From Gammaproteobacteria bacterium (GTDB lineage Bacteria > Pseudomonadota > Gammaproteobacteria > Eutrophobiales > Eutrophobiaceae): a stretch of 64,000 nucleotides of DNA. A program made the position numbers and the translations under genes. The notes beneath the pieces are model-generated. The model searched no databases, was not told the origin of the DNA, and worked only from the letters and a program-made list of their open reading frames with translations. This document shows positions 47,536 through 63,722 of the stretch, piece after piece (the stretch's first letter is position 1; each line of letters opens with the position of its first letter). The stretch is taken from assembly GCA_965222155.1 (NCBI GenBank), contig CBDCTH010000012.1, positions 2,880,001-2,944,000 of the forward strand, given 5' to 3'.

Positions 47536-49068
47536 ATGAATACATATCTGAAAGAAGTACAGGGGATATTGAAACGACTGGGTGTGCCGCTGTTGCAGCA
47601 TGACTGTGGAGAGTTACCAGTCTTCACTCCGCTTAATGGTGAAAAAATCGCTTGGGTTGCGCTCAATGATCCAAATCAGGTCTCCGAGCAAATCGATCGG
47701 GCACACCGGGCGTTTCTGGATTGGCGAATTGTTCCTGCCCCCAGGCGGGGAGAATTGGTGAGGCTGCTGGGAGACGAACTCCGTAAGGCTAAGGATGATC
47801 TAGGCCGCCTGGTTTGTATCGAGGTTGGCAAAATACCGTCAGAAGGGACTGGTGAAGTCCAGGAGATGATCGACATATGTGATTTCGCCCTTGGGCTCTC
47901 GCGTCAACTGTATGGTCTGACGATTGCGACCGAACGCCCAGGACACCGTATGATGGAAGTATGGCATCCGCTGGGTGTGACAGGCGTTATCAGCGCTTTC
48001 AATTTTCCGGTGGCCGTATGGTCATGGAACGCCGCCTTGGCGCTCGTGTGTGGCAATAGCGTAGTCTGGAAACCATCGGAGAAAACCCCGCTGACTGCAA
48101 TGGCCTGTCGCGCAATTTTCTTGCGCGCCCTGGACAAGTTTGGTGATACCCCTGAAGGGCTGTTCGAACTGATAATCGGTGGACGTGAAACGGGCGAAGC
48201 GCTGGTTGAACATCCGCAAGTAGCGCTTATATCTGCCACCGGCTCCACCCGCATGGGCCGTCAGGTTGGGCCTCGCCTATCACAGAGATTTGCCCGCTCG
48301 ATCCTGGAGCTCGGCGGTAACAATGCCGGCATTGTTTGTAAAAGCGCTGACTTGGACATAGCAGTTCGTGCCTGCGTTTTCAGTGCAATCGGAACAGCCG
48401 GGCAACGATGTACTTCAATGAGGCGTCTTTTTGTCCATTACGATGTCTACGAATCCCTTGTGTTGAAGCTGAAGACAGCCTATGAAAGCGTCAAAATCGG
48501 TGACCCAATCAAGACTGGTGCGCAGGTTGGTCCTTTAATCGATGAAAAGGCATTCAATGAAATGCGGGCGGCGCTCAATGAAGCTCGAACAGAAGGCGCT
48601 AAGGTATTTGGAGGAACGCGCGTTAACGAGGCGGAAAACCTGAATGCTTACTATGTTCGGCCTGCGCTCGTGGAAATGTCAGGGCAAACCGGGCCTGTGC
48701 TGCGTGAGACGTTTGCGCCAATTCTGTATGTGATGCGATTTTCCAACCTGGCTGCGGCAATAGAGCTTAATAATGCTGTTGGAGCCGGGCTCTCTTCGGC
48801 GATTTTTACTACTGATGTGCGCGAGGCGGAATACTTCCTGGCATCGAGCGGCTCTGATTGTGGTATCGCTAACGTCAATATAGGCACCTCAGGCGCGGAG
48901 ATTGGGGGTGCGTTTGGAGGTGAAAAGGAAACCGGAGGCGGCAGAGAATCCGGTTCTGATGCGTGGAAAAACTATATGCGCAGGGCAACAAACACAATAA
49001 ATTACTCCAGCGACCTGCCTCTTGCGCAAGGTGTATCGTTTGCCGTTGATGTAGCTGAAAAGCCTTAG
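47536..49068 (+). CDS. amaB: ALDH7/AmaB-like piperideine-6-carboxylate (aminoadipate semialdehyde) dehydrogenase
   Basis: PAPRRGELVR, GEVQEMIDICDFA.GLSRQL, ELGGNNA, GQRCT, GAEIGGAFGGEKETGGGRESGSDAW. Confidence 0.88.
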   Translation: MNTYLKEVQGILKRLGVPLLQHDCGELPVFTPLNGEKIAWVALNDPNQVSEQIDRAHRAFLDWRIVPAPRRGELVRLLGDELRKAKDDLGRLVCIEVGKIPSEGTGEVQEMIDICDFALGLSRQLYGLTIATERPGHRMMEVWHPLGVTGVISAFNFPVAVWSWNAALALVCGNSVVWKPSEKTPLTAMACRAIFLRALDKFGDTPEGLFELIIGGRETGEALVEHPQVALISATGSTRMGRQVGPRLSQRFARSILELGGNNAGIVCKSADLDIAVRACVFSAIGTAGQRCTSMRRLFVHYDVYESLVLKLKTAYESVKIGDPIKTGAQVGPLIDEKAFNEMRAALNEARTEGAKVFGGTRVNEAENLNAYYVRPALVEMSGQTGPVLRETFAPILYVMRFSNLAAAIELNNAVGAGLSSAIFTTDVREAEYFLASSGSDCGIANVNIGTSGAEIGGAFGGEKETGGGRESGSDAWKNYMRRATNTINYSSDLPLAQGVSFAVDVAEKP

Positions 49069-49079
49069 AGGCACTTAAG

Positions 49080-49967
49080 TTACGCTACTTGTGAGAGCCA
49101 GTCCCTCAGCCGAATTAGAGGAACGTATTGATCCCTGTCAAGGGGCCACACCAGGTAGTAATACGCTTCAGCACTCGATACCGCATCACCATACGCTGAA
49201 AGCAGACGCTTATTTTTCAGTTCGTCCTCAATCAGGAATTCGGGCAAAAGTGCAACTCCCAGACTATGTGCCGCCACCTGCGCCATGGTTGCGAATTGAT
49301 CCATCAGCATGCCAGTTACACGCTCCGGGTAAATTCCGTGAGATTCGAACCACAGCTCCCAGGCGTTGGGTCGAGACTTCAGATGCAACAGCGGCACGCT
49401 CTGTAAATCCGCTGGTTCGTTGATGGGGAAGCGTTCCAAAAAACCCGGTGAACAGGCAGGTATGATTTTTTCCTTGAACAGTCTCATCTGCCGCGTGCCA
49501 TGCCAATCAACGCTTCTGTAGGTAATCGCAGCATCCAGAGACTCATTTTGAAAACCTGATGGCACAAGCCATGACGTCAAATTAATCGTCATGCCCGGGT
49601 GTTTGTCGCAGAAGTCTGCCAACCTTGACGCAAGCCAACGTGTGCCCAAGGTTGGCGGAGTTGCCAGGCTGACAGAGCCGCCTTCAGGATTGGCCTTCAG
49701 CGTCAATGAAGACGTTGCGATCAGGCGTAATGCATCACGAATCTCGCGGGCGTATTGTTGCCCGGCGTCCGTCAACAACAGTTTCTTTTTGACTCTTACG
49801 AACAGTTGAACATTGAGCAGTTCTTCGAGCTGCACTATTTGCCGACTGACAGCGCCCTGAGTAAGCGAAAGTTCTTGTGCGGCAAGGGTCACACTACCAG
49901 TACGTCCCACAGCTTCCAGTGCCCTCAGTAAGTGAATGGCTGGAAGAAAGCGCCTGGGCGTTATCAT
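49080..49967 (-). CDS. LysR-family regulator (GcvA/GcdR-like)
   Basis: RRFLP..AAQELSLTQGAVSRQI, TRWL, LGVALLP. Confidence 0.92.
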   Translation of the reverse strand: MITPRRFLPAIHLLRALEAVGRTGSVTLAAQELSLTQGAVSRQIVQLEELLNVQLFVRVKKKLLLTDAGQQYAREIRDALRLIATSSLTLKANPEGGSVSLATPPTLGTRWLASRLADFCDKHPGMTINLTSWLVPSGFQNESLDAAITYRSVDWHGTRQMRLFKEKIIPACSPGFLERFPINEPADLQSVPLLHLKSRPNAWELWFESHGIYPERVTGMLMDQFATMAQVAAHSLGVALLPEFLIEDELKNKRLLSAYGDAVSSAEAYYYLVWPLDRDQYVPLIRLRDWLSQVA

Positions 49968-62813: not shown

Positions 62814-62825
62814 CCCGGATGCGGA

Positions 62826-63722
62826 CTAATCGAGCGCTGCCAGGAATTGGTTTACCACTTCCATAAAGCACTCACGTTGATCAAGATGCAGGCAATGTGA
62901 GGCAGCGGGAATCACACTCAGTCGCGCGTCCGGTGTCAGCTTCGCCCATTCTGCGCATGCTGCCGGCGTTCCCTGGTCGAATTCACCGCAAACATAGAGC
63001 GTCGGCGCGCTGATATTCCTTAACGCGGCGCTGCAATCATACCCGTTCAGGCTACCGGTCGCGCGGAAATCGGTGGAACCCCACATGACCTCGAATTGTT
63101 TTTGATTGATTATTTCAAATGATTTCGATAATTGCGCGGGCCACGGTTTCAATCGACAAAAATACTCATTCGAGTATGTTTCTACGGCTGCAAGATACCC
63201 TGCGCTGTCGACAGTACCGTCACTCTCATGGCTATCCAATGTCTCATAAATATCAGGCGCCAATCGACGGCGCAGCATCGATTGATCCCTGCGCCAGCGC
63301 GGCTCGCTGATGAACGGGCTTGCCAGGGCCAGCCCACGCAATCCAACCGGTTGCCTGGCCGCGTGGTTGGCGACGACAGTTCCTCCCCATGAGTGCCCCA
63401 AAAGATAAATATCATCATCCAGTCCCAAGGCTTCTCGAACTGTCTCCAGTTCAGAGACGTAGTAATCCAAGGTCCAATTGTCCTGCCTCAGCGGCCGGTC
63501 CGAATTTCCGCATTCCAGTTGATCATAAAAATAGACAGGACGGTGCGTGGCCAGGTCACTCAGACCAAGCAGATAATGGTGTGATAATCCTGGCCCGCCG
63601 TGGACAACCAGCAGTGGTGTATTGCCCGTATCAGACCGGTCTGCCCCGATACTGAGACACCAGATTCGGTCTCCGAACTCATTCTCAATATACTTTCCTG
63701 CGTCAGGCGCTTTTCTTTCCAT
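62826..63722 (-). CDS. Proline iminopeptidase-family hydrolase / L-amino acid amidase
   Basis: HGGPG, YDQLECGNS, GHSWGG, GEFD, SH. Confidence 0.87.
   Translation of the reverse strand: MERKAPDAGKYIENEFGDRIWCLSIGADRSDTGNTPLLVVHGGPGLSHHYLLGLSDLATHRPVYFYDQLECGNSDRPLRQDNWTLDYYVSELETVREALGLDDDIYLLGHSWGGTVVANHAARQPVGLRGLALASPFISEPRWRRDQSMLRRRLAPDIYETLDSHESDGTVDSAGYLAAVETYSNEYFCRLKPWPAQLSKSFEIINQKQFEVMWGSTDFRATGSLNGYDCSAALRNISAPTLYVCGEFDQGTPAACAEWAKLTPDARLSVIPAASHCLHLDQRECFMEVVNQFLAALD

Follow-up and report, generated by a model that had tools for sequence, protein, structure and literature searches.

What does a KamA-like radical S-adenosylmethionine (SAM) enzyme do when its gene overlaps that of a class-III aminotransferase and lies close to genes of pipecolate breakdown? 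This question is raised by a stretch of 64,000 nucleotides from a Gammaproteobacteria bacterium (assembly GCA_965222155.1, contig CBDCTH010000012.1, positions 2,880,001 to 2,944,000; hereafter the window, in genome G000), where these genes occupy the region 47.5-63.7 kb. The original prediction, made from the sequence of the window, was an aminomutase acting on lysine, followed by a transaminase and by oxidation of the product by an ALDH7-type aldehyde dehydrogenase (ALDH), the whole running alongside pipecolate oxidation. We lean towards another order of the same parts, in which a 2-aminoadipate 2,3-aminomutase and a 3-aminoadipate transaminase would form a cassette feeding 3-oxoadipate. We infer all of its substrates and reactions from what is observed, namely gene families, conserved residues, fold and conserved neighbourhoods.

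A divergent KamA-family protein with a predicted non-basic substrate

The proposed core would pair a radical SAM/pyridoxal phosphate (PLP) 2,3-aminomutase with a beta-amino-acid transaminase, both controlled by a divergent LysR. In the window it is laid out as follows (ORF, open reading frame):

50060-50959, minus strand: LysR 2 (GcvA-like), divergent from the aminomutase gene, the predicted conserved regulator of the cassette
50960-51139, intergenic: AT-rich region of 180 bp between the divergent LysR 2 and aminomutase genes, presumed control region
51086-52594, plus strand: ORF of the KamA-like radical SAM gene, opening with GTG at 51086; from the likely start, ATG 51140, it encodes 484 aa
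52575-53960, plus strand: ORF of the class-III (fold type I) aminotransferase gene, with a TTG start and an ATG at 52584; Pfam Aminotran_3 (PF00202), 181.6 bits

ATG 51140 is the likely start of the aminomutase gene, because homologues align from about residue 19 and a GGAAG stands upstream. The aminotransferase ORF overlaps the stop of the KamA-like gene by 20 nt when counted from the TTG and by 11 nt from ATG 52584, and the two genes are probably translationally coupled.

Families were assigned with NCBIfam and Pfam profiles, whose scores in bits were compared with the curated cut-offs, equivalog models giving a function-level assignment. The KamA-like protein scored below every curated model: under the family cut-off (TIGR00238, 97.4 vs. 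199.2) and far under every equivalog of a family that includes AblA, EpmB and the glutamate and arginine 2,3-aminomutases (TIGR04368, 88.2 vs. 650; EpmB, 82.1 vs. 369.3; AblA, 76.3 vs. 525.4). Its Pfam Radical_SAM domain also remained under the cut-off (20 vs. 29.5). A profile of 39 sequences matched the lysine 2,3-aminomutase (LAM; KamA) of Clostridium subterminale (PDB 2A5H) with an E-value of 1.9e-78. The AlphaFold2 model of the protein (mean predicted local distance difference test, pLDDT, 93.0; predicted template modelling score, pTM, 0.91) had the same structure as its top Foldseek match (E 7.5e-19; TM 0.58/0.68), the next match being at 7.6e-06. The protein is therefore modelled with a LAM-like fold and is best described as a divergent branch of the KamA family, about 60-70 residues longer than LAM (484 vs. 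416 aa).

The cofactor residues point in the same direction (numbering from ATG 51140). The CxxxCxxC motif, C136/C140/C143, aligns with C125/C129/C132 of LAM, and K396 aligns with Lys337, which we take to be the PLP-binding lysine; both are invariant in the 39 aligned sequences. R145 is a kept arginine aligned with LAM Arg134. The positions of LAM Asp293 and Asp330, two residues that presumably bind the epsilon-ammonium group of lysine, are occupied by R353 and S389, and this holds in all 14 close family members aligned. Because Arg and Ser replace both aspartates, the predicted substrate is not lysine, contrary to the original prediction. The protein is probably a working PLP/radical SAM aminomutase for a substrate without a basic side chain, probably an acidic one. 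The distal carboxylate of 2-aminoadipate would lie approximately at the place of the lysine epsilon-amine, so that an Asp-to-Arg exchange fits and Arg353 would suit this carboxylate. Glutamate 2,3-aminomutase is said to carry Lys/Asn replacements.

This branch is well populated. We found 2083 database proteins at E<=1e-10, with 80 representatives at E<=1e-30 in a library clustered at 50% identity. The best 120 matches are 76-88% identical and measure about 470-506 aa; some bear the label 'hypothetical protein', others 'L-lysine 2,3-aminomutase'. In the ESM Atlas, the nearest cluster, also a 'hypothetical protein', has 509 members. Judged from these matches, and with identities of 70-88% over Alpha- and Gammaproteobacteria, Planctomycetota and Chloroflexota, the subfamily appears real, large, unnamed and highly conserved.

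Next to msrA and a glutathione-transferase-like gene, between which it sits, G000 carries a second orphan KamA-family gene (C12:1558727-1560103; L002:1096-2472, plus strand; 458 aa), also below all curated cut-offs (TIGR00238, 126.4 vs. 199.2).

A transaminase of the beta-amino-acid type

The best solved relative of the window transaminase is the omega-transaminase of Sphaerobacter thermophilus (StoTA, 6K8H; E 1.3e-115), followed by ForI (1e-100), the glutamate-1-semialdehyde (GSA) aminomutases (6e-66 or weaker) and the beta-transaminases of Mesorhizobium (2YKU) and Variovorax (4AO9). The 6K8H enzyme is active on beta- and gamma-amino acids, R36 holding the substrate carboxylate and K282 being the PLP lysine (PMC10589169). 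R36, N70 and K282 all align with identical residues in the window protein, which is thus predicted to be a class-III transaminase of the beta-amino-acid type. The pairing of a KamA-family enzyme with such a transaminase, and with it isomerization followed by transamination, is therefore a part of the original prediction that finds support. StoTA-like enzymes were studied on aromatic and aliphatic mono-carboxylic beta-amino acids, whereas we propose from sequence a substrate with two carboxylates, 3-aminoadipate, and a physiological role in catabolism: the protein would be a 3-aminoadipate:2-oxoacid transaminase giving 3-oxoadipate.

HemL, the identity that would have refuted the original prediction, was rejected: the protein scored under the HemL cut-off (TIGR00713, 332.9 vs. 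527.3), and a true HemL is encoded elsewhere in G000 (C12:1682556-1683833; 624.7).

Conserved neighbourhood of the aminomutase

We scanned one genome per species for relatives of the KamA-like protein. From 207 confirmed relatives, the best 80 loci were kept (69-83% identity to the window protein), all their ORFs were clustered and the clusters were counted per locus; homologue searches covered 81 locus entries. In 44 of the loci, the well-flanked subset, 5 kb or more of sequence was available on each side. According to the record titles, the carriers belong to Alphaproteobacteria (Hoeflea, Mesorhizobium, Parasedimentitalea, Sneathiella, Cucumibacter, Emcibacter and others), Gammaproteobacteria (Woeseiaceae, Kangiellaceae, Steroidobacteraceae and a gutless-worm symbiont), Planctomycetota and Chloroflexota. 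The neighbours were, in all loci and in well-flanked ones:

Transaminase (orthologues 51-72% identical): 63/80; 39/44
LysR: 59/80; 32/44
FdxA-type ferredoxin: 39/80; 27/44
CoA-transferase subunit A: 37/80; 22/44
CoA-transferase subunit B: 36/80; 22/44
AmaB, within 10 kb: 25/80; 19/44
Saccharopine-dehydrogenase-fold protein, lysine-dehydrogenase (LysDH)-like: 15/80; 11/44
PcaF thiolase: 14/80; 6/44
AmaA-like oxidase: 5/80; 4/44

The recurrence of the pair and the presence of AmaB within 10 kb of the aminomutase indicate that the linkage seen in the window is more than chance. The tie of the pair to AmaB-type lysine/pipecolate catabolism, which the original prediction had put forward from a single locus, is thus found elsewhere as well. 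AmaB takes four positions relative to the aminomutase, differing in side and in strand (14, 4, 4 and 3 loci), and this variety argues for a functional linkage rather than for one inherited arrangement. Its homologues near the aminomutase are 52-70% identical, and the three tested all pass the cut-off of NF050084. Of the 59 loci with a LysR gene, 48 have it in divergent orientation, no more than 700 nt upstream.

The other neighbours were identified from tested representatives: PcaF passed its equivalog (715.1 vs. 597), as did FdxA (163.2 vs. 135), PcaI/ScoA (346.1 vs. 128.5) and PcaJ/ScoB (304.5 vs. 243.55) with their models. In 25 of the 37 loci with genes for the coenzyme A (CoA)-transferase, these are inside the operon, between aminomutase and transaminase; the conserved neighbour clusters included no further pca genes. 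The saccharopine-dehydrogenase-fold protein has Pfam Sacchrp_dh domains, its best PDB match is PH1688 (3ABI), which we take to be a lysine dehydrogenase, and an Lrp regulator often accompanies its gene. A cluster of the OCD family, of the piperideine-2-carboxylate (P2C) reductase type, was found in six loci; its member in L069 passes the P2C/pyrroline-2-carboxylate (Pyr2C) reductase equivalog (417.2 vs. 322). AmaA-like genes accompany this cluster in L037, L069 and L074, and L066 has one without an OCD gene.

In six to seven loci (L005, L006, L012, L018, L041, L042 and L047; e.g. L012:182-8782), a TRAP transporter (DctPQM) and a full set for coenzyme F420 biosynthesis (CofC, CofD, F420 ligase, a fused CofG/H radical SAM protein and an F420-dependent NADP oxidoreductase) precede the LysR gene of the cassette. 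These loci may share ancestry; a deazaflavin might conceivably serve the reduction of the radical SAM enzyme there.

Proposed route to 3-oxoadipate

In the window, an AmaA-like oxidase would convert L-pipecolate to L-piperidine-6-carboxylate (P6C; 2-aminoadipate semialdehyde); in other genomes, a lysine-6-dehydrogenase-like enzyme would produce P6C from lysine. AmaB would then oxidise P6C to L-2-aminoadipate. The KamA-like enzyme would shift the amino group from C2 to C3, with a ferredoxin as a plausible reductant of its radical SAM cluster, and the transaminase would convert the resulting 3-aminoadipate to 3-oxoadipate. Finally, a PcaIJ-type CoA-transferase and the PcaF thiolase would yield succinyl-CoA and acetyl-CoA, their genes being inside the operon in many other genomes and elsewhere in G000.

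The neighbourhood frames this sequence of steps from both ends. The upstream neighbours (AmaA-like oxidase and P2C reductase, or the LysDH-like protein, then AmaB) converge on 2-aminoadipate, and the downstream PcaIJ and PcaF consume 3-oxoadipate; a 2,3-amino shift followed by a beta-transamination would therefore connect both. AmaB is more plausibly placed upstream, making 2-aminoadipate, than downstream on a semialdehyde as first predicted, and the two routes that were thought to run side by side look serial, the conserved PcaIJ and PcaF pointing to 3-oxoadipate as the product.

The upper part would be common to the D-lysine/pipecolate pathway of Pseudomonas putida, which runs through AmaA, AmaB, the PP_4108 transaminase, HglS (PP_5260) and 2-hydroxyglutarate oxidation, HglS disposing of the 2-oxoadipate derived from 2-aminoadipate (bioRxiv 10.1101/450254). 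Pipecolate would reach 2-aminoadipate through P6C by an AmaA-like enzyme and AmaB in both cases, whereas an amino shift and entry through 3-oxoadipate are proposed here in place of 2-oxoadipate and 2-hydroxyglutarate. The lower part would correspond to the lower beta-ketoadipate pathway: the same PcaIJ and PcaF families are inside the operon in related loci and absent from the window, and they would be fed from an amino acid, not from aromatic ring cleavage. The catabolic context (transaminase, PcaIJ/PcaF, AmaB) also distinguishes the window protein from KamA-family members associated with EpmA, AblB or KamDE.

The original prediction had not recognised the combination as a described route, and full-text searches, which did not reach subscription journals or supplementary files, yielded no paper that describes a 2-aminoadipate aminomutase or a route through 3-aminoadipate. 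The few matches were metabolomics lists, a meteorite study, a misprinted reference and author names.

The locus in the window

Around the core, the region contains the following features:

47536-49068, plus strand: amaB, ALDH7-type P6C dehydrogenase; equivalog NF050084, 796.5 vs. cut-off 730
49080-49967, minus strand: LysR 1 (GcvA-like), adjoining amaB; Pfam HTH_1 and LysR_substrate; NF008352, 229.4, below the cut-off of 288
54203-60616, plus strand: RTX/serralysin-C/FG-GAP gene, 2137 aa, about 6.4 kb
60987-61280, minus strand: N-terminal remnant of an acyl-CoA dehydrogenase, 97 aa
61458-62813, plus strand: ORF of the AmaA-like oxidase, dependent on flavin adenine dinucleotide (FAD), likely start about 61551; Pfam DAO, 216 bits; NF050086, 432.7, below the cut-off of 600
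62826-63722, minus strand: alpha/beta hydrolase of the proline-iminopeptidase family; TIGR01250, 246.9 vs. cut-off 167.65

All the genes named in the original prediction are present where it placed them; it had left out the RTX gene and the acyl-CoA dehydrogenase remnant. These two sit between the aminotransferase gene and the AmaA-like gene and split the cluster. The RTX gene has a GC content of 0.58-0.71, against about 0.50 around it, and its protein has a HExxH region resembling that of metalloproteases at the N-terminus, FG-GAP repeats, serralysin C-terminal domains in six stretches and RTX nonapeptides in 15. The gene has the look of one for a secreted protein that was acquired separately. 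The remnant matches only positions 11-82 of acyl-CoA dehydrogenase models, the best being a glutaryl-CoA dehydrogenase model (44 bits). The arrival of the RTX gene probably truncated a longer gene, of which this is the stump; if that gene encoded a glutaryl-CoA dehydrogenase, it would have been one more lysine-catabolic gene.

The membership proposed at first for the cluster is only partly retained. AmaB belongs to it and the AmaA-like oxidase is a rare companion; the hydrolase had no homologue in any of the 81 locus entries, and its membership in the pathway is doubtful. Homologues of the RTX protein and of MurU were likewise found in none of these entries, and none of the three is part of the conserved system. 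The two regulators also differ: LysR 2 is 37-70% identical to the LysR of related loci and is, on this comparison, the likely conserved regulator, LysR 1 being only 34-49% identical to it. From its context, the AmaA-like protein would be an L-pipecolate oxidase giving P6C. AmaA-like homologues beside the cassette in other loci score 248-463 overall against the same cut-off of 600, those of L037, L066 and L069 reaching 440-463; a clustered homologue is also present in L074.

The aminomutase gene shows a local GC content of 0.42, against about 0.50 in the flanks. A promoter-like match on the minus strand (50992-50965) in the intergenic region is a consensus match only; the promoter and terminator scan of 47-64 kb gave counts near those of shuffled sequence and was not used. 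Among the public sequencing runs containing this DNA, none is listed as RNA.

The remaining window is occupied by housekeeping genes according to family scores (ppk1, pst genes, phoR, dnaA, yidC, mnmE, polA), with murU as well, and mgtE, ptsP, rpoN, lptABC and kdsD were read from translations. Tol-Pal and ruv genes apparently lie downstream of the window, from translations only. The genes dnaA (minus strand), yidC and mnmE stand at 12255-17927, which places the window close to the chromosomal replication origin region.

Distribution and the rest of the genome

In G000, the cassette is cut down to the overlapping two-gene core with its own LysR. It is joined to amaB, which brings another LysR gene, and, beyond the RTX insertion and the remnant of the dehydrogenase, to the AmaA-like oxidase. 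Of 41 genomes, G000 alone yielded the AmaA-like gene. Within the genus, the combination of the aminomutase with an over-cut-off AmaB was seen in G000 and G011, the 21 other genomes searched having no such combination. The GC dip and this patchy distribution indicate horizontal acquisition of the cassette. Since the sigma-54 relatives are all metagenome-assembled, the host belongs to an uncultured gammaproteobacterial lineage.

G011, the closest relative, has a different set of genes behind the cassette, on the opposite strand (L004:4290-9106): AmaB, a LysDH-like gene, an ornithine aminotransferase (TIGR01885, 473.4 vs. 378.4) and an arginase (259.2 vs. 227.6). This upstream module differs from the AmaA-like one of the window.

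We then looked in G000 for the steps that the window lacks. An FdxA homologue (67% identity) is encoded elsewhere, as are two CoA-transferases of the PcaIJ/ScoAB family, one of them fused and adjacent to an iron alcohol dehydrogenase. There is also a thiolase over the cut-off of one 3-oxoadipyl-CoA thiolase equivalog (NF006001, 644.2 vs. 622). HglS (PF07063) was not found in G000. For the 2-aminoadipate transaminase, NF049976 gave nothing over its cut-off in G000, a model that stays below cut-off in all control genomes too. A full route from pipecolate to the tricarboxylic acid cycle is possible in G000, its last two steps being the weakest part of the case here.

The window had been described as free of epmA/efp, ablB, kamDE and nonribosomal peptide synthetase genes, and for epmA, ablB and the peptide synthetases what we found agrees with this. 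No EpmA in the whole of G000 exceeds the cut-off, the best match (239.7 vs. 286.9) being outside the window, AblB had no match, and the longest window ORF besides the RTX gene encodes 938 aa, DNA polymerase I. The lysine 5,6-aminomutase Pfam had no match in G000, but its control matched in no genome.

Fifty of the 80 loci, the longer ones, were chosen for whole-genome counts. An over-cut-off AmaB is present somewhere in 42 of these 50 aminomutase-carrying genomes; the rough base rate, in relatives of G000 without the aminomutase, is 6 of 39. HglS was found in only 8 of the 50, and all eight also have AmaB.

Weighing the proposed route against alternative explanations

Several observations weigh against the 2-aminoadipate route. 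Concerning the substrate, Arg at the Asp293 position is not family-specific: it occurs in 33 of 38 aligned relatives, including uncharacterised KamA-family members, and none of 10 distant KamA relatives tested passes any equivalog. Since this Arg is common to distant relatives, it restricts the class of substrates but does not single one out. The roles of LAM Asp293, Asp330, Arg134 and Lys337 are those that Lepore et al. reportedly assigned in 2005. Concerning the upper part, AmaB is missing from 25 of the 44 well-flanked loci, and 8 of the 50 carrier genomes have no AmaB over the cut-off. The comparison of carriers with relatives of G000 without the aminomutase spans different taxa, and related genomes are not independent samples. 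The AmaA-like protein of the window is under the AmaA cut-off, and a foreign-looking gene of 6.4 kb parts it from the cassette. The P2C-reductase equivalog of G000 is on contig C4, in an assembly rated 7.28% contaminated. Concerning the lower part, the window has no genes for the ferredoxin, the CoA-transferase or the thiolase, one CoA-transferase of G000 adjoins maleylacetoacetate isomerase and may serve acetoacetate instead, and the thiolase fails TIGR02430 (550.3 vs. 597). Finally, a radical SAM enzyme of catabolism would be unusual in aerobes, to which many of the hosts belong.

Among the alternatives, the one that survives best keeps the chemistry and changes the substrate. The aminomutase would act on L-glutamate or on another acidic amino acid (e.g. 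2-aminopimelate), and the linkage with AmaB would reflect a shared regulon or co-transfer; in the glutamate version, beta-glutamate would give 3-oxoglutarate, then its CoA ester, then malonyl-CoA and acetyl-CoA. We regard this as unlikely. It would account for the many loci without a neighbouring AmaB, the Arg at the Asp293 position says no more than that the side chain should be acidic or non-basic, and glutamate 2,3-aminomutase is a known activity of the KamA family, its model TIGR04368 being among the better, though weak, matches of the window protein. That match is nevertheless far from the cut-off, and no true glutamate 2,3-aminomutase, i.e. a protein over this cut-off, was found in G000 or in 14 control genomes. 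The thiolase of the loci passes the 3-oxoadipyl-CoA thiolase equivalog, and the genes for AmaB, the LysDH-like protein, the AmaA-like oxidase and P2C reductase all converge on 2-aminoadipate, recurring in four arrangements. The frequency of AmaB in the carrier genomes is a further argument against a substrate unrelated to it.

A second alternative exchanges the role of the transaminase, which would be a lysine 6-aminotransferase feeding AmaB, the 3-aminoadipate formed by the aminomutase being an end product or handled by another enzyme. The loci L024 and L025 speak for it: both have LysR, aminomutase, FdxA, transaminase and AmaB without a LysDH-like or AmaA-like gene, so that P6C would need another source there. 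This explanation is nonetheless quite improbable. The nearest solved relatives of the transaminase are the beta-amino-acid transaminases and ForI, then the GSA aminomutases; no lysine 6-transaminase model appears among the best 25 of its 66 NCBIfam matches; and the position of the CoA-transferase genes, between aminomutase and transaminase, suits an enzyme that makes the substrate of the CoA-transferase.

The lysine 2,3-aminomutase of the original prediction appears very improbable. In this explanation, beta-lysine would be transaminated and the semialdehyde or oxo acid oxidised by the ALDH7, in parallel to pipecolate oxidation. Both LAM lysine-binding aspartate positions are Arg and Ser, even if the KamA fold and the cofactor residues are present and some sources label homologues 'L-lysine 2,3-aminomutase'; the lysine, elongation factor P (EF-P) and AblA equivalog models reach 76-82 bits against cut-offs of 369-525. 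An ALDH gene does adjoin the cassette, but it passes the P6C-dehydrogenase equivalog, whose product is 2-aminoadipate. Likewise, the conserved PcaIJ and PcaF fit a C6 dicarboxylic 3-oxo acid, not an amino-oxo acid.

Lastly, that the adjacency is an accident of island mosaicism and the cassette unrelated to AmaB and AmaA is hardly credible: the region is accessory (aminomutase, over-cut-off AmaB and AmaA-like gene in at most 1 of 22 other congeners) and contains a foreign-looking RTX gene and a gene remnant, but proximity to AmaB is seen in 25 of 80 loci, which belong to different phyla and show four orientations, and the closest relative G011 has it next to the cassette in a different arrangement.

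Implications for lysine and pipecolate catabolism

The proposed route bears on the disposal of 2-aminoadipate, which was settled only recently for Pseudomonas, through HglS; most cassette carriers have AmaB and no HglS. In its broadest form, the proposal is that the KamA-like protein represents the first 2-aminoadipate 2,3-aminomutase and, with a transaminase dedicated to 3-aminoadipate, forms a new and horizontally spread link from lysine and pipecolate catabolism into the beta-ketoadipate pathway which, judging from its enzyme families, would need no oxygenase. This link would replace the HglS route in most carriers and, in G000, would be cut to a two-gene core joined to the AmaA-like/AmaB pipecolate branch. 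We give this broader statement about even chances of being right. If true, it would extend the radical SAM aminomutases to a new substrate class and bring 3-aminoadipate into bacterial metabolism as a new metabolite. The annotations of more than 2000 database proteins, at present 'hypothetical' or 'lysine 2,3-aminomutase', would then have to be revised. Beta-aminoadipate and 3-oxoadipate, building blocks of the adipate family, could become accessible by biocatalysis with these enzymes. For the organisms themselves, the cassette would account for the use of lysine as a source of carbon and nitrogen by many bacteria of the sea and of sediments.

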